Of a stretch of DNA of 64,000 nucleotides, positions 4,139-25,531 are shown piece by piece (the first letter of the stretch is position 1; each line of letters starts with the position of its first letter). The position numbers and the translations under genes were made by a program. This DNA comes from Candidatus Latescibacterota bacterium. GTDB lineage: Bacteria; Latescibacterota; UBA2968. The DNA lies in the NCBI GenBank assembly GCA_965208125.1, contig OZ242320.1, positions 384,001-448,000 of the forward strand, in the 5' to 3' direction. Below the pieces are notes generated by a model that saw only the letters and a list, made by a program, of their open reading frames with translations, had not been told where the DNA came from and ran no database searches.

Positions 4139-4152
4139 ATTTCCCTCCTTGA

Positions 4153-4641
4153 TCAATCCCTCTGCAAACATTCGACCAGCAGGTCCAATGCTTCGCGGGC
4201 GAACACTTCCATATTCTCTCCCCGATTCTCGCTACCCGTTGCGATAGCAATCGCCCGCTCGGTATCTGGCCCCACAACGCCGATACACGTATGGCCGGGC
4301 GGATCGCCGTACCGATTTCCCGTCGGACCAGCCGCGCCTGTCTCGCCGATACCCCAGTCAGCCCCCAAACGTTCGCGCGCAGCGCGAGCCAGATGCAGGG
4401 CATGCGTCTTTGTCGCAGCCCTCGCCTCGCCCATTGCCGCATCGGAAACAGCCATCAATATTTGCTTTGAGTCACCCGTATAACACACCCCACCTCCCCT
4501 GAAATAAGCCGAAGCCCCCGGCACAGCCAAAAGTGCAGCAGAAATGATACCACCCGCCGACGACTCGGCCACCGCCACAGTCTGCCCCTTTTCTTTTAGC
4601 AATGCACCAACATCTGTGGCCATTGTCTTAAAATCCGCCAT
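4153..4641 (-). CDS. CinA C-terminal domain / PncC-like amidohydrolase
   Basis: VAVAESSAGG, VPGASAYF, ETGAAGP. Confidence 0.85.
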   Translation of the reverse strand: MADFKTMATDVGALLKEKGQTVAVAESSAGGIISAALLAVPGASAYFRGGGVCYTGDSKQILMAVSDAAMGEARAATKTHALHLARAARERLGADWGIGETGAAGPTGNRYGDPPGHTCIGVVGPDTERAIAIATGSENRGENMEVFAREALDLLVECLQRD

Positions 4642-17626: not shown

Positions 17627-18091
17627 CTATTTCAAAATATCCAAATCCAAAATTTTCTGTACATCGGCCTTCACTTGCGCGGGCACGCGAAACCGATAGC
17701 TCTTGCGTTGAGAAATGAGTTCCAAATCGCGCTCTGTGCGCCACACATATCTCGAAAAACGCTGCCAGGGCATGTAGCGCATACCCATCAGCAATCCGCG
17801 CGTGCTCATGGTCACGCGAATAGTAGCATACGCGATATAAAAAAACTCGAGAGAAAGCAAAAAGCCGAACAATTGCGGCACGAATCCCACACCATCTGAG
17901 ATCGCAGCCCCTCGAAACAGCACAATCCCTCCCGTCACAATCAAAAGCACATCCCATCGCTTTTGCAAAAAAACCACCACAGGCTCCTGCGCATTGGACA
18001 CATGACGCCGCAATCGCCAATAGGCCACAATAGACGCGCCCAATAAAACGGGAGCGAGAATCAACACAATTTGTATAAGTGTCAAAGACAT
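17627..18091 (-). CDS. Hypothetical membrane protein with a PH-like C-terminal tail
   Basis: Three hydrophobic segments then a GLL...PWxxF tail; packed between ubiE and argS. Confidence 0.6.
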   Translation of the reverse strand: MSLTLIQIVLILAPVLLGASIVAYWRLRRHVSNAQEPVVVFLQKRWDVLLIVTGGIVLFRGAAISDGVGFVPQLFGFLLSLEFFYIAYATIRVTMSTRGLLMGMRYMPWQRFSRYVWRTERDLELISQRKSYRFRVPAQVKADVQKILDLDILK

Positions 18092-18092
18092 G

Positions 18093-18854
18093 TTACGTTT
18101 TCGACGCCAGATAAATGGTTGCAATCCCAAAGCTCAACCGAACCGCCTGTATATCGACAAATCCTGCTTCAAATAACCAATCACAAAAATCATCACCTTC
18201 GGGAAAACGCATCACAGATTCGTACAAATAGCGGTAGGCATTCGGATCGCGGGAGACCATGTGTCCAATACGAGGCAAAATACGTTGAAAATAAAAATTG
18301 TAAAGGCCGCGGAACACAGGGATTCGCGGCCTTGAAAACTCCAGCACAGCCACACGCCCACCCACCTTGAGCACGCGGCACATCTCGCTCAGGGCCGTTT
18401 CCAATTCGGCCACATTGCGAATGCCAAATCCGATTGTCACGCCGTCAAATGTCTCCTCACCAAAGGGGAGACTCTCCCCATCGCCACACAAAAACGCGAC
18501 CGGATTTGCTCGCGATGCATTTTTTTTTGCGCCCTCGCGCAACATCGGCATTGAAGGATCGACACCGATCACCTGAATATTGCCAGCGCGCTTGCCGCAT
18601 TCAAACCCCAAATCGCCCGTACCCGTAGCCAGGTCTAAAATGCGCCAGTTTGGCCCGGGTCGCAATCGGTCAACAGTCTTTTTTCGCCAAACAATATCAA
18701 CGCCCATGCTCAACAGGTGGTTGAGCAAATCGTATCTGCGGGCAATTCCGTCGAACATCTGACGCACAAAAGCGCGCTTGGCTTCTGGTTCGAGCAACAC
18801 ATCGCGCGCGATACCCGCAGGATTTTTAGGGCTATGCCTGTGTTCACCTCTCAT
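18093..18854 (-). CDS. ubiE: UbiE/MenG demethylmenaquinone methyltransferase
   Basis: FDGIARRYDLLNHLLSMG, LDLATGTGD, FGIRNV, AYRYLYES; start uncertain. Confidence 0.93.
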   Translation of the reverse strand: MRGEHRHSPKNPAGIARDVLLEPEAKRAFVRQMFDGIARRYDLLNHLLSMGVDIVWRKKTVDRLRPGPNWRILDLATGTGDLGFECGKRAGNIQVIGVDPSMPMLREGAKKNASRANPVAFLCGDGESLPFGEETFDGVTIGFGIRNVAELETALSEMCRVLKVGGRVAVLEFSRPRIPVFRGLYNFYFQRILPRIGHMVSRDPNAYRYLYESVMRFPEGDDFCDWLFEAGFVDIQAVRLSFGIATIYLASKT

Positions 18855-19722
18855 TTTTTGTGCCGACCCGTTTGACAACGACATCTTTCATCACATCAGT
18901 CGGTGGCTCAACACCCGTCCAGATCGCAAAAGAACGCGCGCCTTGAAAAACCAGCATATCCAGTCCACCAAAAGCCGGTGCGCCAACCGACTGAAACGCG
19001 CGCATCAACTGCGTTTCCAGCGGATTGAACACCGTATCATAGAGCACCAAATCCGGATGGACAGCGCGTGCATCGGCAAGGGGTGAGGCATTGACCTCGG
19101 GATACATCCCCAGCGAAGTGGTATTCACAACCACGCCCGCATCGACAAACGCCCTGCACTGCGCATCGGCATCCAGCGCGCCCACATTCATTTTTGTACC
19201 TGTTATTTTTTCCATATCCAGCGCCAGCGCCTCTGCGCGCTTAACCGTGCGATTCAAAATTGTCACCCGCTGCACCTCGTCTTGCGTCCCCAGCGCATAC
19301 GCCACAGCGCGGGCCGCTCCACCTGCGCCGAGCACCACACAATGCGCGGGAAATGTCTCAACCCCCGCAATATCGCGCAATGCCCTCAAGACGCCATAGA
19401 CATCCGTATTGTATCCGACCAACTCATCTTCTTCGCGCGAAATAGTATTAACCGCCCCCACGGCCAGCGCTTCGGCTGAAATGCGGTCCATGTGTTCCAT
19501 CACCGCCAGCTTGTGCGGAATAGTTACATTTAACCCGCGAATATTCAACCCGCGCAACCCCTTCATCGCCTCGCCCACGCGGTCGGGCAACACGTGAAAA
19601 GCCACATAACAATAATCCACATCTAATGCGGCGATCGCGGCATTGTGCATATCGGGAGAAAACGAATGAGCCACCGGGTCGCCAATAACGCCCAGCACCT
19701 GACTTGTTGCGCGAATACTCAT
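18844..19722 (-). CDS. aroE: Shikimate dehydrogenase
   Basis: HSFSP, NVTIPHK, GAVNT, NTD, GAGGAARA, GLDMLVFQG. Confidence 0.96.
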   Translation of the reverse strand: MSIRATSQVLGVIGDPVAHSFSPDMHNAAIAALDVDYCYVAFHVLPDRVGEAMKGLRGLNIRGLNVTIPHKLAVMEHMDRISAEALAVGAVNTISREEDELVGYNTDVYGVLRALRDIAGVETFPAHCVVLGAGGAARAVAYALGTQDEVQRVTILNRTVKRAEALALDMEKITGTKMNVGALDADAQCRAFVDAGVVVNTTSLGMYPEVNASPLADARAVHPDLVLYDTVFNPLETQLMRAFQSVGAPAFGGLDMLVFQGARSFAIWTGVEPPTDVMKDVVVKRVGTKNER

Positions 19723-19877
19723 CAAGACCTTCGATTGCCATCCAGCAAATCATTCACAAACTCATCAGCGATATCAAAACTCTCTCTCCACGAGCAACCA
19801 TACGTATAGCGTATAAATGCCACACCGCCCAGGATCATCAAAATCGCAAAGAGCGCGAGCTTAAAAAGTATCTTCAT
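19722..19877 (-). CDS. Small (51 aa) single-TM protein
   Basis: MKILFKLALFAILMILGGVAFIRY...; RBS GAGGTGA; ATGA overlap with the aroA-like stop and TGATG overlap with aroE. Confidence 0.65.
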   Translation of the reverse strand: MKILFKLALFAILMILGGVAFIRYTYGCSWRESFDIADEFVNDLLDGNRRS

Positions 19878-20533
19878 ATCTTCACCTCTTTTGGTTGAAC
19901 AACAGTAGATAAACAGGCAAATAACCCGGCGAAATCGCGGCACATATCGCCCGTATTTGACACCTTCGTTTCGCCTTCGGCTGCCAATCCCGCAAGTGCA
20001 AAAGTCAATCCCGTATGGGCATCACCGCCGGCATCGACCTCTATTCCCTCAAGACGCACAGGCCCCTGCACAACCAGGCCATCGGGCATTTCGCCTACCT
20101 TAGCCCCCATTTGACGCAAATTTTGGATTGTCAATGATAGGCGATCGATCTCTCCCTGACGCAACCCCTCTCCATCCCGAATAACCATTTCACCTGCTGC
20201 CTGTGTGCCCAACACAGCGAGAAATGGCACTTCACGAATAAATAGATCCGTCTGCTCACCCCCGATGCGCGTGCGCCGCAATTCAGACCCCTGGACTTTA
20301 ACCGTACGCGTCACTTTTGCCTTTGATCGCGTCACCTGAATATCCAATTGTGCATTCAACCGCCGCAACAAATCCAATGCGCGGCGGGTCTTCCAATCAT
20401 CGCCCACGCAGTGAAGAGTCAAATCCGACTGCGATAACATCGCCGCAGCACCGAGCAAATACAGCGTAGTCTCGGCATCCCCCGGAACATCGCACTCCCC
20501 AATAAGCCCACGCGCTTCTTTTACCTCATACAT
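19874..20533 (-). CDS. Half-size AroA (EPSP synthase) homolog, single domain, catalytic motifs degenerate
   Basis: 219 aa; N-terminal LIGECDVPGD joins directly to the C-terminal half of AroA; IDE->IRE, KE->GE, DHR->DAH. Confidence 0.75.
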   Translation of the reverse strand: MYEVKEARGLIGECDVPGDAETTLYLLGAAAMLSQSDLTLHCVGDDWKTRRALDLLRRLNAQLDIQVTRSKAKVTRTVKVQGSELRRTRIGGEQTDLFIREVPFLAVLGTQAAGEMVIRDGEGLRQGEIDRLSLTIQNLRQMGAKVGEMPDGLVVQGPVRLEGIEVDAGGDAHTGLTFALAGLAAEGETKVSNTGDMCRDFAGLFACLSTVVQPKEVKI

Positions 20534-20544
20534 TTTTTATCCCT

Positions 20545-21654
20545 CTAACGCAACCGCACTTGGTAACCCGCATCTCGCAAAATATCGATAGACCGCTCGG
20601 CTTCCTCCTGCTGCCCAAATCCCATCCGAATCGTTCCTCCTTCGCCTTCGCGCACCTTTAGCACTTCAATATCCTCAATATTAATTCCTTCGGCAGATAG
20701 CCGCGAGGCAACATCGGCAATCACACCGGGTTTGTCCTCCACCACCAGCAAAATTTCGTGAAGCGGGTGCAAAAATCCCTTGGAATCTCTGGGAATCTCT
20801 CCGCGAATGCGATTCGCATAGTCAAAATCTTCCGATAACGCTTCCCGATCCACCTTATCTCGTATCGCCACAAGCGCGTCGAGATATGCATCGATCATCT
20901 CTCGAATAGGACCGGCATTCGTCTGACAAATATCTCGCCACATCGCAAACGGACTGGAGGCAATACGCGTCAAATCGCGGAACCCACCCGCTGCCATTTG
21001 CAGGGGAAGACCATCGGCCTCATTGAGCCTGCCCACCAATCCCACGAGTGTGGTAGCCATCATCTGCGGCAAATGGCTCACCGTCGCAGCGACCCGATCA
21101 TGGGTCTCGGCCTCCATACGCATAGAACGCGCACCAATGCATTGCACCAGTACTGCAAGCGCATCCACAATTTGATCGGGAACACCGCTTGCGGGCGTAA
21201 GCACATAAAGCGCGTTTTCAAACAAAAAGGGATCGGCTGCGCCCACGCCGCTCTTTTCCGACCCCGCCATGGGATGCCCGCCCACAAAATGCACATCTTC
21301 ACGCGCGACCCGTTCCGCACATGCGACAATCGCGCCCTTGGTGCTACCCACATCTGTGATAATACAACCCGGCGAGGCCGCTTGCACAACTGTGGGCAAC
21401 TGCTCCAGAATACGCACAATGGGCGAACACAAAAATACCAGATCTGACCGCTTTACGCCATTGTCCATTGCGTCGTATTCATAGCCACTGTCGATCACAC
21501 CGAGCGCACGGGCCTCTCGCAGGGTCTCCGCGCGGCTAATACCAATAATCTCGCGCCCAATACCCAGTCGTTTAAACGCCAGCCCCAGTGACCCACCAAT
21601 CAACCCCACACCCACAATGGCAATCGCGGCATCTCTAAACGGAGGATCATTCAT
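20545..21654 (-). CDS. tyrA: Prephenate/arogenate dehydrogenase with ACT domain
   Basis: GVGLIGGSL, DVGSTK, GGHPMAGSE, SHLP, GGFRDLTRIASS, C-terminal DKPGVIA ACT domain. Confidence 0.95.
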   Translation of the reverse strand: MNDPPFRDAAIAIVGVGLIGGSLGLAFKRLGIGREIIGISRAETLREARALGVIDSGYEYDAMDNGVKRSDLVFLCSPIVRILEQLPTVVQAASPGCIITDVGSTKGAIVACAERVAREDVHFVGGHPMAGSEKSGVGAADPFLFENALYVLTPASGVPDQIVDALAVLVQCIGARSMRMEAETHDRVAATVSHLPQMMATTLVGLVGRLNEADGLPLQMAAGGFRDLTRIASSPFAMWRDICQTNAGPIREMIDAYLDALVAIRDKVDREALSEDFDYANRIRGEIPRDSKGFLHPLHEILLVVEDKPGVIADVASRLSAEGINIEDIEVLKVREGEGGTIRMGFGQQEEAERSIDILRDAGYQVRLR

Positions 21655-21668
21655 ACAAATAACCTACC

Positions 21669-21908
21669 CTACATAAACCGGGACACGGATTCGTCACGAT
21701 TTGCTTTTGGGATAGAAACACCGTCCTCCCGGTAACACTCTTTCATCAACTCCCATGCTGCTTTCAATTCAACTAACGCCTCGTCAGGCGTCTGTCCAAA
21801 AGCCGAGACATTGGGAAGTTCCACGAAATGGGCGAGATAATCGCCATCTTCATCCAGAAACATCTTAACTGTGAATCCATCGAAGTCGTCCTGATTATTA
21901 TTTTTCAT
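21669..21908 (-). CDS. hicB: HicB-family antitoxin (short form)
   Basis: DEDGDYLAHFVELPNVSAFGQTPDEA; no DNA-binding tail. Confidence 0.85.
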   Translation of the reverse strand: MKNNNQDDFDGFTVKMFLDEDGDYLAHFVELPNVSAFGQTPDEALVELKAAWELMKECYREDGVSIPKANRDESVSRFM

Positions 21909-22143
21909 TTTTTGTCTCCCAATGATATTGTCTCAAAAATTGTCGAACCTGATAGCCCTTGGACATGGTACGATTGGGTTGGACTACGAGTCGGTACCCG
22001 TCGGGAGAGTACCAAACACGATGGCTTCCTCGCTGGCGGCGTTGCGTCCATCCGCATTGACGCAGGAGTCTTTCAAACTCCCTGAATTGCAAACCATTAG
22101 GATTTCGCTGAGCTTTGTCGAGCAAGGCTTCTCTTTGATCCAT
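21898..22143 (-). CDS. hicA: HicA-family toxin
   Basis: GWTQRRQRGSH motif, KGYQVRQ. Confidence 0.88.
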   Translation of the reverse strand: MDQREALLDKAQRNPNGLQFREFERLLRQCGWTQRRQRGSHRVWYSPDGYRLVVQPNRTMSKGYQVRQFLRQYHWETKNEK

Positions 22144-22201
22144 GCTGTCATTCTATTGAGTCCGCTTTTGGATAAACTTATGCTATAGTTGTTTCTTGCC
22201 T

Positions 22202-23227
22202 CTAAACCAAATCCGCCAGATCTTTCACAAACACTTCCGTGTCTTCCCACCCCAGGCACGGGTCAGTGATGGATTTCCCGAATATCCCTTCTTCGGGTTT
22301 TTGCGCGCCCTCCTCCAGATAACTCTCCACCATCAACCCGCGCACCACATTGTGAAGAAGCGGGGAATGGCGGCGGCTGCGCATCACCTCAAGACCAATG
22401 CGTGGCTGTTCGGAAAAAGTTTTATCTGAATTATTGTGATTGGTATCCACGATAATCGTCGGATTGCCCAACTTGCGCGCCAGGTATTGCTCGGCAACAT
22501 GCATCAAATCTTCGTAGTGATAATTGGGAATACTCCGCCCATTATACGACACCCCGCGCAACACCGCATGCGTCAACGAATTACCCGACGTACTGACTTC
22601 CCATCCATTGTGAAAAAACACATGCGGCATTTGCGCTGCATAAATGGCATTGAACATCACATCCAGATCGCCACCCGTCGGGTTTTTCATGCCCGCAGGC
22701 ACATCGACACCGCTAATGGTCAAGCGATGATTCTGATTTTCAACAGACCGCGCCCCCACGGCAATATAACTCAGCAAATCCTCCACATAGGGCAAATTCG
22801 AAGGATAGAGCATCTCATCGGCAGCCGTCAAATGCGACTCGCGGAAAGCGCGAATCTGCATCTGCCGAATCGTCTTAATCCCAACAACCATATCGGGCAT
22901 ACCTTTGGGATCGGGCTGATGGGCCATGCCCTTATACCCTTCGCCAGTCGTGCGCGGCTTATTGGTATAAATCCGCGGCACGAGCACCAGCTTGTCCATC
23001 ACCTGCTCTTGAAGCTGCGCCAGGCGATTCACATATTCACACACCGCATCGACATTGTGAGCCGAGCAAGGACCAATAACCAACAAAAACTTATCGCTCT
23101 TGCGCTCAAAAATAGCCCGAATCTCGGCATCGCGTTCATCCTTCTTAGCCTTCAAATCATCGGGCAGTGGCAAAACATCCTGGATTTCTTCTGCACTGGG
23201 AATGGGCTGAATCCGTTTGAAACTCAT
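22202..23227 (-). CDS. DAHP synthase, class I-alpha
   Basis: IGPCSAH, KPRTTGEGYKG, GARS, GMKN, DTNHNNS, SITDPC. Confidence 0.95.
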   Translation of the reverse strand: MSFKRIQPIPSAEEIQDVLPLPDDLKAKKDERDAEIRAIFERKSDKFLLVIGPCSAHNVDAVCEYVNRLAQLQEQVMDKLVLVPRIYTNKPRTTGEGYKGMAHQPDPKGMPDMVVGIKTIRQMQIRAFRESHLTAADEMLYPSNLPYVEDLLSYIAVGARSVENQNHRLTISGVDVPAGMKNPTGGDLDVMFNAIYAAQMPHVFFHNGWEVSTSGNSLTHAVLRGVSYNGRSIPNYHYEDLMHVAEQYLARKLGNPTIIVDTNHNNSDKTFSEQPRIGLEVMRSRRHSPLLHNVVRGLMVESYLEEGAQKPEEGIFGKSITDPCLGWEDTEVFVKDLADLV

Positions 23228-23240
23228 AATAGTACCTTTT

Positions 23241-23522
23241 TTAAGACTCTGAATCTAAGTGATCTTCTTCCAACCGCAATGACTCATCGATAATCTGCCT
23301 AAAAATGCGTTGCGCTGCTTCGTGACTCAAAGGACCGCCATTCAATTCGCGAATGCGGTTGAGAATCAGAGTTTCTCGTTCAGGGACATGAAAGGGCAAA
23401 CCCTCGGCACGCTTAATTTTTCCCACAGACAGGGCACACCGGGCACGCTCATTGAGCAACTCGAGAATCTGATCATCTAAGGCATCAATTTTCTCGCGCC
23501 AGAAATCCAGATCCTTCTCCAT
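23241..23522 (-). CDS. Chorismate mutase (AroQ class)
   Basis: REKIDALDDQILELLNERA, PERE, IFRQII. Confidence 0.92.
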   Translation of the reverse strand: MEKDLDFWREKIDALDDQILELLNERARCALSVGKIKRAEGLPFHVPERETLILNRIRELNGGPLSHEAAQRIFRQIIDESLRLEEDHLDSES

Positions 23523-23525
23523 AAC

Positions 23526-24329
23526 CTACACACCCTCTCCTAAAGGGCCGATCAAAGACCCGACAAAAGCACCCACCTTTGCAACCAGATCGGCATCGTG
23601 TTGGTACTCGCCAACGCGACGCACAATCGCGCTACCAACCACAACCGCATCGGCATATCGCGCAATGTCCGACACATGCTCGGGCGTTGAAATACCAAAC
23701 CCAACGGCAATGGGCATATCTGTGTACTGGCATATCGCAGACACCTTGCTTTGAATTTCATCAGCCAGAGAATCGCGCTCTCCCGTCACTCCTGTGCGCG
23801 ACACATAATAGACGAAACCCCTCGTATGCGACGCAATCAGCTTCATCCGATCATCGCGCGTAGTCGGTGTCACGAGAAAAATCGTATCCAGCCCATGCAC
23901 ATCCATCTGCGCCTTGTAATCGCTGCCCTCTTCCGGAGGCAGATCCAGCATCAGAACACCATCCACCCCCACATCTGCAGCGCGTTTTACAAAGCGCTCC
24001 ACACCGTAGCGATGAATCGGATTGTAATACGTAAACAACACAATGGGGATTTCGGTCTCATCCCGCACATCTGCAACCATAGACAACACGCCCTCGAGCG
24101 TTGCACCAGCGGCCAAAGCGCGTTGTGACGCCTCCTGAATCACGGGGCCATCAGCCAGAGGGTCTGAAAAGGGAACACCCAATTCCAGGACATCCACACC
24201 TCGCCGATCCAATTCCAACACCACCTGATGCGTGGTATTTAAATCCGGATCACCCGCCGTAATATATGCGACAAAGCCCGTCCTGCCCGCTTTTCTCAAG
24301 TCTTCAAATCGCCGTCCAATCCGCGTCAT
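23526..24329 (-). CDS. trpA: Tryptophan synthase alpha chain
   Basis: [27 protein letters not shown]. Confidence 0.98.
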
Positions 24330-25531
24330 CTCACTCCTTCTATAAACCGCGCCGCCTGTTGCACATCTTTATCTCCGCGTCCCGATAAATTGACAACCAC
24401 AATCTGATCTCGACTCATCTCCGGAGCCAGCTTGCAAACATGGGCAATAGCGTGTGAACTCTCCAAAGCGGGAATAATCCCTTCGGTATGACTGAGCAAC
24501 TCAAAAGCACTGAGCGCTTCCTCATCCGTCGCATACGTATAAGCCGTACGAGACATATCCCGCAAATAGCAATGCTCTGGCCCCACGCCCGAATAATCGA
24601 GACCAGCCGACACCGAATGTGTCAATGCGATTTGCCCATCATCATCTTGCAACACATAAATGCGCGCACCGTGCAAAACCCCCAAATCGCCGCCATTAAA
24701 CCGCGCGGCATGCTCGCCAGACTCAATACCGTGCCCGCCAGCCTCCACGCCGATCATCTGCACATCGGCATCATCCAAAAAAGCGTGAAACAACCCGATA
24801 GAATTGCTTCCCCCGCCCACACATGCGACGAGCACATCGGGCAATCGGCCTTCTCTCTCCAAAATTTGAGCACGGGCTTCAACGCCAATAACCCGCTGAA
24901 AATCGCGCACAATCATCGGATACGGATGCGGTCCCAAAACCGAACCAAAAATGTAAAACGTATCCTCCACATTGGTCACCCAGTCGCGAATAGCCTCATT
25001 AATCGCATCCTTAAGGGTTTTACTACCCGAATGGACACCCGTAACTTTCGCTCCCAAAAGCCGCATGCGAAACACATTGAGCGCTTGCCGTTCCATATCT
25101 TCAACACCCATGTAAATTTCGCATTTGAGACCGAACATCGCAGCCACAGTTGCCGTTGCCACGCCGTGTTGCCCGGCACCAGTCTCGGCAATAATCCGCG
25201 TTTTGCCCATTCGGTTGGCGAGCAAAATCTGCCCCATGGCGTGATTGATTTTATGCGCTCCCGTATGGGCGAGGTCTTCGCGCTTGAAATAAATTTTAGG
25301 CCCGCCGAGTTCTTCTGTCAACCGCTCCGCAAAATAAAGCGGCGTGGGCCGCCCGACATAATCGCGCAAATATTGATCCAGTTCAGCCCAAAAATCGGGA
25401 TCCCGCTTTGCCTCCTGATAAGCCGCCTCCAGGTCTTGCAACAGCGCCATAAGCGTCTCGGGCACATACTGCCCACCATAAGGCCCAAAATGCCCGCGCG
25501 CATCGGGCAAATCACTCGCGTTTACAGCCAT
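24326..25531 (-). CDS. trpB: Tryptophan synthase beta chain
   Basis: [28 protein letters not shown]; start reset to MAVNAS. Confidence 0.98.

Follow-up and report, generated by a model that had tools for sequence, protein, structure and literature searches.

EPSP (5-enolpyruvylshikimate-3-phosphate) synthase, or AroA, is a textbook two-lobe enzyme and is the target of glyphosate. Here we describe a gene that encodes only one of the two lobes. It lies between tyrA and aroE in a 64,000-nucleotide stretch of the genome of a Candidatus Latescibacterota bacterium (GenBank assembly GCA_965208125.1, contig OZ242320.1, positions 384,001 to 448,000), which we will call the window. The encoded protein has 219 amino acids, has lost the catalytic residues of EPSP synthase, and is under purifying selection. 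We will call it the one-lobe protein.

A truncated EPSP synthase has been described before. In Pseudomonas syringae, a truncated AroF (EPSP synthase) domain is fused to TyrA (Song, Bonner, Wolinsky, Jensen 2005, BMC Biol 3:13, PMC1173090). In that paper, a legend marks the remnant as a pseudogene, and a passage of the text suggests that it might become a new regulatory domain. Free-standing forms may be hidden by how sequences are selected. For instance, as its sequence selection is described, a survey of EPSP synthase classes drops sequences of under 350 amino acids as truncated, so short forms go unseen; the class II reference in that survey is the EPSP synthase from Coxiella (10.1101/2020.05.27.118265). 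Our literature search, whose coverage did not extend to subscription journals, found no paper on free-standing one-lobe EPSP synthase proteins.

A single lobe of EPSP synthase with degraded motifs

A preliminary description of the window, made from the sequence alone, had noted an intact 219-codon open reading frame (ORF) with a ribosome-binding site, 11 nucleotides after tyrA. It claimed that the product corresponds to one structural domain of AroA and that the catalytic motifs read IRE, GE, and DAH. All of these claims held up. In the model from AlphaFold 2, which was based on a 67-row alignment, the protein forms a single compact lobe (predicted local distance difference test score [pLDDT] 94.6, predicted template-modeling score [pTM] 0.91). 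Residues 2-4 and 7-15 form strands that are packed with confidence (mean pLDDT of 96 over the first ten residues). When we compared the model to known structures with Foldseek, the top hits were EPSP synthases (TMq 0.81, root-mean-square deviation [rmsd] 2.2-2.6 Å). The best structural matches of the lobe are the Coxiella structures that represent class II in the survey, and all of the top matches are two-lobe proteins of 400-445 amino acids. In a comparison to Coxiella AroA (4egr_A) with VIA-align, 212 of the 219 residues aligned, with Z = 29.5, an rmsd of 2.1 Å, and 28% identity. Residues 1-214 of the model span residues 2-428 of the 4egr_A chain, and correspond to its N-terminal strand and its C-terminal half. 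Together, the strand and the C-terminal half make up one complete lobe, which is predicted to fold alone.

The protein is clearly related to AroA by sequence as well. Residues 10-196 match positions 225-405 (of 417) of PF00275 (E = 2.3e-24; 86.3 bits, above the gathering threshold of 22.8 bits). Against TIGR01356, which is the equivalog model for aroA (EC 2.5.1.19), the protein scores just 96.9 bits, or about one third of the cut-off of 287.25 bits. Functional AroA proteins have two lobes and two hinges in ~420-450 amino acids, and this protein has a single lobe in 219.

The roles of the conserved motifs of AroA (KSISHR, NSGTTMR, RPM.R, SAQVK, IDE, KE.DR, and DHR) are known from E. coli; we read the canonical motifs themselves from canonical relatives of the one-lobe protein. 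KSISHR, NSGTTMR, RPM.R, and SAQVK belong to the missing lobe, so the one-lobe protein lacks them. As for the motifs in the retained lobe, the alignment shows FIREVP, LRQGEIDR, and GDAH in place of the canonical IDEIP, RKKETDR, and DHR. The IRE, GEIDR, and DAH motifs are not fixed within the genus either: the DHR site reads DAH, DAL, DAR, or DTR. We infer that the one-lobe protein cannot make EPSP. One source annotates such genes as "3-phosphoshikimate 1-carboxyvinyltransferase," which would mislead pathway reconstruction.

Origin by excision of the inserted lobe

The closest full-length relative that we found is P0045, which has 428 amino acids, starts with MSTHEVKEARGLIGECDAPG, and is 73% identical to the one-lobe protein over the shared part. 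Relative to P0045, the one-lobe protein lacks the stretch of 209 residues that separates the two D-x-P-G hinges. The 13 residues ahead of the D-V-P-G of the one-lobe protein are 12/13 identical to the N-terminus of P0045, versus 0/13 for the segment before the second hinge. Past the junction, 10/15 residues match the sequence that follows the second hinge, versus 5/15 for the sequence that follows the first hinge. So, the one-lobe protein consists of the N-terminal strand and the C-terminal half with nothing in between, and its N-terminus runs straight into the sequence that normally follows the second hinge, as the preliminary description had claimed. That description left two origins open: clean excision of the inserted domain, or retention of only the C-terminal half. 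The hinge comparison supports the first and not the second: the event was a clean internal excision.

The inserted lobe was deleted in frame at the base of the genus. The likely route would be via a short direct repeat that encodes both hinges. In L046, which is a full-length locus from a sister genus, the DNA sequences of the two hinges, CCAGGTAACCC and CCAGGTGACCC, form a 10-of-11 direct repeat.

An active aroA elsewhere in the genome

PF00275 matches three places in the 5.75-Mb genome: a full-length aroA, MurA (471.7 bits against TIGR01072), and the one-lobe gene. The full-length AroA (424 amino acids; G000:C1:3387134-3388405) scores 424.4 bits against TIGR01356, so EPSP synthesis is supplied elsewhere, as was expected in the preliminary description. 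The one-lobe protein and this AroA are 27% identical over 110 residues. Given this low identity, the two copies belong to different lineages. Among the 31 relatives that we searched, 30 contain a full-length aroA of the active type.

We also searched for the missing lobe, using residues 26-225 of P0045. They match nothing in the genome beyond a weak similarity to the housekeeping aroA. Because there are no further matches to either PF00275 or the lobe of P0045, the genome does not contain a complementary half, as far as it has been assembled (about 4% may be missing).

Conservation and selection within the genus

The short form is present in all 21 genomes of the genus, in the same gene order, and many of these genomes consist of a single contig. 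At the same place, all 10 genomes from five other genera in the family have open frames of 433-490 codons. We read 19 loci from the genus, and the one-lobe ORF is intact in all of them (214-223 amino acids). One locus stops six codons early, at a length that is also seen in another species.

To quantify selection, we used the Nei-Gojobori method (NG86) to compute the ratio of nonsynonymous to synonymous rates (omega, or dN/dS). For the one-lobe gene, the median omega was 0.147 (range 0.060-0.434 across 171 pairs). As controls, tyrA had an omega of 0.102, aroE had 0.148, and the short gene downstream of the one-lobe gene (the mini-gene, see below) had 0.121. The upper limits of the 95% bootstrap intervals were 0.33 or less in 6 pairs, and dS in the deepest pairs was 0.93-1.35. 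Across the 19 genomes, 122 of the 219 positions are invariant. By these measures, purifying selection on the one-lobe gene is as strong as on the neighboring enzymes. With its catalytic residues lost, an active paralog in the same genome, and purifying selection on the protein, the one-lobe protein is a pseudoenzyme.

The preliminary description had raised the possibilities of an assembly collapse or a copy that evolves neutrally. Neither fits these data: the gene has the same structure across the genus, its omega is around 0.15, and contigs of four public runs cross the junction between tyrA and the one-lobe gene. Contigs from RNA libraries of three studies (X16, X17, and X19), which are 90-97% identical to the window and come from relatives, cover the gene and extend across its junction with tyrA; the records are 13 (20064-20576), 21 (20372-20601), and 28 (20433-20604). 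These RNA contigs are a weak hint that the gene is transcribed, as they carry no strand, level, or transcript ends, could derive from carry-over of DNA, and include uncovered bins (in X17 and X19) that have no meaning.

The best-matching DNA run, X1, contains two populations at positions 18800-21700. Contigs with a depth of about 5 are identical to the window, and contigs with a depth of about 210-230 differ at about 5-11% of positions. Given the difference in depth, the host is greatly outnumbered by a close relative in that sample.

Full-length relatives that have lost the motifs

In the sister genera, in the sister family (f2), and in another family of the same class (f3), the copy in the operon is full-length and lacks KSISHR, NSGTTMR, RPM.R, SAQVK, RDHTE, KE.DR, and DHR. 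In f3, the operon copies score 147-153 bits against TIGR01356, and a second aroA elsewhere scores 361-432 bits. More distant families are different. The translated operon copies from f5, f6, and f11 retain every motif, and in 12 genomes from f5, f6, f9, f11, f12, and f13, the only gene that passes TIGR01356 is the one that is most similar to the one-lobe gene. Judging by these sequences, the ancestor of the one-lobe gene is the EPSP synthase gene that this phylum has between tyrA and aroE. In the host's class, a second, distinct aroA elsewhere in the chromosome is the only copy that still passes the aroA model, and the operon copy has lost the motifs of both lobes yet is still full length. Catalysis was apparently lost before the lobe was excised.

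The series of events would begin with an active aroA in the operon. A second aroA would then have arrived or risen, and the operon copy would have lost catalysis while it was kept at full length. Finally, one lobe would have been excised in the host's genus. The direction of the first three steps is from a tree that was rooted on the canonical copies.

The full-length dead paralogs also indicate which lobe matters. Across 29 of these proteins, identity averages 55.5% in the columns of the retained lobe, versus 40.0% in those of the other lobe, and the retained lobe is more conserved in 405 of 406 pairs. Across 20 canonical-looking AroA proteins, the two lobes are equally conserved (42.7% versus 42.5%; the retained lobe is higher in 88 of 190 pairs). 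Similarly, for six genomes of one genus with dead paralogs, omega is 0.18 for the retained lobe versus 0.32 for the other lobe (15 pairs with dS < 1.5), and dN is greater in the other lobe in all 66 pairs of 12 sequences. So, the lobe that was discarded was already less constrained, though it was not free of constraint.

A second short form

A second set of short proteins from Candidatus Latescibacterota (P0029, P0031, and loci L032, L033, and L038) has 215-227 amino acids and the same architecture and synteny. Its junction is different, with the form L/V-P-E/S-G-K/E-W and three extra residues. We built a tree with IQ-TREE from the retained columns of 24 sequences, leaving out the housekeeping aroA and a 160-residue piece from genome G020 (see below). 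The short forms from the host's genus are nested within the full-length forms of their own family (100/98, starred), and the second short clade is set apart by another well-supported branch (99/97, starred). The approximately unbiased test rejected a single clade of short forms (difference in log likelihood 52.9, p = 2.6e-6); the group that was tested had been chosen after a FastTree tree was seen. By this tree, the second lineage lost the same lobe independently. The AlphaFold 2 model for the second form has a pLDDT of 96.7. For one pair of second forms, the proportions of synonymous and nonsynonymous differences (pS and pN) are 0.67 and 0.20, as compared to 0.67 and 0.16 for tyrA and 0.63 and 0.15 for aroE; at this distance, synonymous sites are near saturation.

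To look for short forms more broadly, we searched representative sequences, which gave 4287 matches at E ≤ 1e-3, and we read 10 short representatives. Eight of these look like fragments: P0174, P0186, P0222, P0220, P0195, and P0139 have canonical motifs, and P0185 and P0255 do not have all of them. Another of the ten, P0136, is the dead paralog in a short form. In P0259 (226 amino acids), the strand and the C-terminal half are combined with intact IDELP, RVKETDR, and DHR motifs. P0259 might be a further one-lobe form, or it might reflect an internal start on a fragment.

Operon context

The features of this region are listed in Table 1. The order tyrA, aroA-like gene, mini-gene, aroE was conserved in all 27 of the relatives' loci that we fetched. 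Although tyrA and the one-lobe gene are packed tightly, they are separate: the stop codon of tyrA is a TAG at 20545-20547, and the one-lobe gene has its own ATG 11 nucleotides on. In all 19 loci from the genus, a motif of the GAGGG/GGAGA type lies 5-8 nucleotides upstream of that ATG. On the other side, the TGA stop codon of the one-lobe ORF shares the sequence ATGA (19874-19877) with the start codon of the mini-gene. In 7 of the 19 loci, other spacings (-17, +3, or +4) are found instead of this overlap. A scan of positions 18000-24500 for promoters and terminators did not find more sites than in shuffled sequence.

Table 1. Features of the aromatic gene string around the one-lobe gene.
Feature	Position	Strand	Basis
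One-lobe gene, derived from EPSP synthase (219 amino acids, catalytically dead)	19874..20533	-	ORF with ATG start; PF00275, TIGR01356, AlphaFold 2, omega
Codons 1-14, original N-terminal strand of the parent protein	20492..20533	-	12/13 identity to the N-terminus of P0045; strands in the model
Codons 15-18 (D-V-P-G), deletion junction with fused hinge segments	20480..20491	-	Comparison with full-length relatives
Codon 100 (R), site of Asp in the canonical IDEIP	20234..20236	-	Alignment
11-nucleotide spacer following the tyrA stop, with Shine-Dalgarno-like AGGGA	20534..20544	-	Sequence AGGGATAAAAA
tyrA, prephenate dehydrogenase with C-terminal ACT domain; upstream operon partner	20545..21654	-	PDH_N, PDH_C, ACT; NF005107 (309 bits)
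Mini-gene, 51-amino-acid hydrophobic protein	19722..19877	-	Start codon shares ATGA with the stop of the one-lobe gene
aroE, shikimate dehydrogenase; downstream operon partner	18844..19725	-	TIGR00507 (254.9 bits); start overlaps the stop of the mini-gene
DAHP synthase, upstream in the same aromatic gene string	22202-23227	-	PF00793
Chorismate mutase, upstream in the same aromatic gene string	23241-23522	-	PF01817

The spacing between tyrA and the one-lobe gene is 135 nucleotides in one locus of the genus (L016, from G017), versus 10-16 nucleotides elsewhere. The ORF and the motif that resembles a ribosome-binding site are unchanged in that locus.

The mini-protein itself is highly conserved, with the pattern MKILFKLALFAILMILGGVAFIRYTY.CSW.ESFDIADEFV.., and we found its gene in 124 of the 151 genomes from the phylum. 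In the loci that we read, the mini-gene is directly downstream of aroA or of its dead or short derivative. The mini-protein matched no family in Pfam, and a search of the ESM Atlas (best score 0.77) gave no family either. It seems to belong to the tyrA-aroA-aroE string as a conserved member that has yet to be described. By the positive-inside rule, its acidic tail probably lies outside of the cytoplasm, which makes the mini-protein a less likely partner for the lobe.

Between DAHP synthase and tyrA, there is a homolog of the HicA toxin (PF07927, E = 4.4e-11) with an overlapping 79-residue ORF (21669-22143, minus strand). This pair is found in 4 of the 19 loci from the genus (L004, L007, L019, and L020), and DAHP synthase abuts tyrA in at least 13 others. 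The pair looks like a mobile toxin-antitoxin cassette within a biosynthetic operon.

Possible roles of the one-lobe protein

We think that this selected and catalytically dead remnant is, most likely, a non-catalytic binding module in aromatic amino acid biosynthesis. We base this proposal on the position of the gene in the operon, on the selection that acts on it, and on the lobe-specific constraint in its full-length relatives. The one-lobe protein probably has a non-enzymatic job, and as a binding module, it would be regulatory or scaffolding within the aromatic pathway. If so, the gene was repurposed, as the preliminary description had suggested. The role would already reside in this lobe of the full-length dead paralog, and we propose that the other lobe became expendable for this reason.

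Several observations weigh against a binding role. G020, from the sister family, keeps only a 160-residue C-terminal piece (locus L026, positions 4146-4628 of the oriented locus). (A near-identical 160-residue protein, P0028, has 6 member sequences on 3 contigs.) In G022, which is also from the sister family and is 95% complete, the order is tyrA, mini-gene, aroE (L050, 4145-4390), and the paralog is gone; it was lost outright from 1 of the 15 genomes of that genus. The stub and the loss imply that the protein is dispensable in some lineages. Recurrent reduction is the rule for this operon copy, and complete loss has been tolerated at least once. Also, position 100, which is the site of the Asp in the canonical IDEIP, is the most variable position of the protein, with six types of residue in 19 genomes. 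Because the former active-site positions vary freely, the working surface is probably somewhere other than the old cleft. Among members of the genus, the isoelectric point calculated for the lobe can be as low as 5.2 or as high as 9.8, which argues against a conserved electrostatic binding face. Finally, the purifying selection could partly reflect the need to keep a product that is obligatorily translated foldable and harmless.

Taken to the extreme, this last point would make the ORF a translated spacer, which is kept only so that ribosomes can read through to the mini-gene and aroE, with selection for just a foldable and non-toxic product. The tight packing (an 11-nucleotide spacer and then 4-nucleotide overlaps) fits this idea, as do the lack of an excess of promoter- or terminator-like sites over shuffled sequence, the drift at the former active-site positions, and the state of the locus in G022 and G020. 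But coupling requires an open frame and not a particular sequence, and yet the omega of the gene equals that of the flanking enzymes and over half of its positions (122/219) are invariant. The protein is equally conserved in the seven loci that lack the ATGA overlap, and the same lobe is better conserved in full-length relatives, where the argument does not apply. Also, the operon of G022 works without the gene. If the ORF were a spacer of no use, losses would be expected in more than 1 of the 15 genomes of that genus. We consider this explanation rather unlikely. A new or residual chemistry seems more doubtful still. The lobes of EPSP synthase and of MurA share one fold, and a cleft might in principle be restored in a homodimer, so two or more lobes might assemble into a mimic of the cleft that binds or converts a phosphorylated or carboxylated metabolite. 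The glutamate and arginine of RKKETDR do survive within the genus, as GE.DR, but they are not kept in the full-length dead relatives (which have GP.DC, GS.DS, or GG.DV), and the other cleft residues are lost or vary, as at position 100 (six residue types) and the DHR site (DAH, DAL, DAR, or DTR).

We give almost no weight to two other explanations. If the one-lobe protein were part of a split enzyme, then the missing lobe would be encoded elsewhere and the pieces would reassemble into an EPSP synthase. But PF00275 finds only the full aroA, murA, and the one-lobe ORF; the lobe of P0045 (residues 26-225) has only its weak match to the housekeeping aroA; and even the retained lobe no longer has its catalytic motifs. 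A half-sized gene with a redundant and active paralog might also be a recent pseudogene or an assembly collapse, but the identical structure in 21 of 21 genomes, the contigs from public runs that cross the junction, and an omega of about 0.15 at dS of up to 1.3 make this just as hard to believe.

The binding-module proposal could be extended to a more general and more speculative one, which we view as a long shot. The lobe that is formed by the N-terminal strand and the C-terminal half of class II-type EPSP synthases might hold a second, non-catalytic function, such as allosteric or scaffolding control (of TyrA, for example), that is older than the loss of catalysis, and the protein might be repeatedly pared down to it. 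If this were true, then the paring would recur once another aroA takes over the chemistry: Latescibacterota would provide two cases, and Pseudomonas syringae perhaps a third. The one-lobe proteins would then show, in naturally minimal form, a moonlighting module that lies hidden in a textbook enzyme and herbicide target.

Comparison to known systems

The one-lobe protein resembles canonical class II-type AroA proteins, such as those of Coxiella burnetii (4egr, 3tr1, and 3slh), in the fold of one lobe. Its descent within the tyrA-aroA-aroE operon, where the copy is still canonical in more distant families, is another link to canonical AroA. Unlike canonical AroA, it has half of the length, it lacks the lobe that bears KSISHR, NSGTTMR, RPM.R, and SAQVK, and its remaining motifs are degraded.

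The trypanosome AdoMetDC "prozyme," as it is presented in the relevant part of PMC5201418, is also an inactive paralog that is under selection beside an active one, and it is of the kind that regulates a pathway. For the one-lobe protein, a regulatory role would be the parallel, and the cases differ in that a whole lobe was removed here.

As far as the remnant in Pseudomonas syringae is described in the passages on it (PMC1173090), it has much in common with the one-lobe protein: EPSP synthase lost about 200 residues in its N-terminal part (209 in the case of the one-lobe protein), there is a second, stand-alone aroA, and the remnant is beside TyrA. On that account, another phylum has undergone an event of the same kind. 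We searched for other remnants of this type (TyrA-fused, ~530 amino acids) using residues 530-741 of P0114; the best 120 of 8000 candidates were all full-length proteins or fragments. Unlike the P. syringae remnant, which is described as a fusion to TyrA, the one-lobe protein is encoded by a free-standing ORF with its own start codon and ribosome-binding site. Relative to what is described for P. syringae, we also measured selection, mapped the excision to the hinges, and identified a full-length dead stage and two independent excisions.

So, both a dead paralog of an enzyme and a truncated remnant of EPSP synthase are of kinds that were already known. What is new here is an unusually complete evolutionary series. 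A single operon position shows the active enzyme, a full-length dead paralog, an excised single lobe (twice), a 160-residue stub, and complete loss, with selection measured at two stages, for the full-length dead paralog and for the single lobe. In this series, a discontinuous domain was freed cleanly, probably by recombination between the hinge segments, and it then persisted as a stand-alone protein. The series also points to the lobe in which any non-catalytic role of the dead paralogs must sit.

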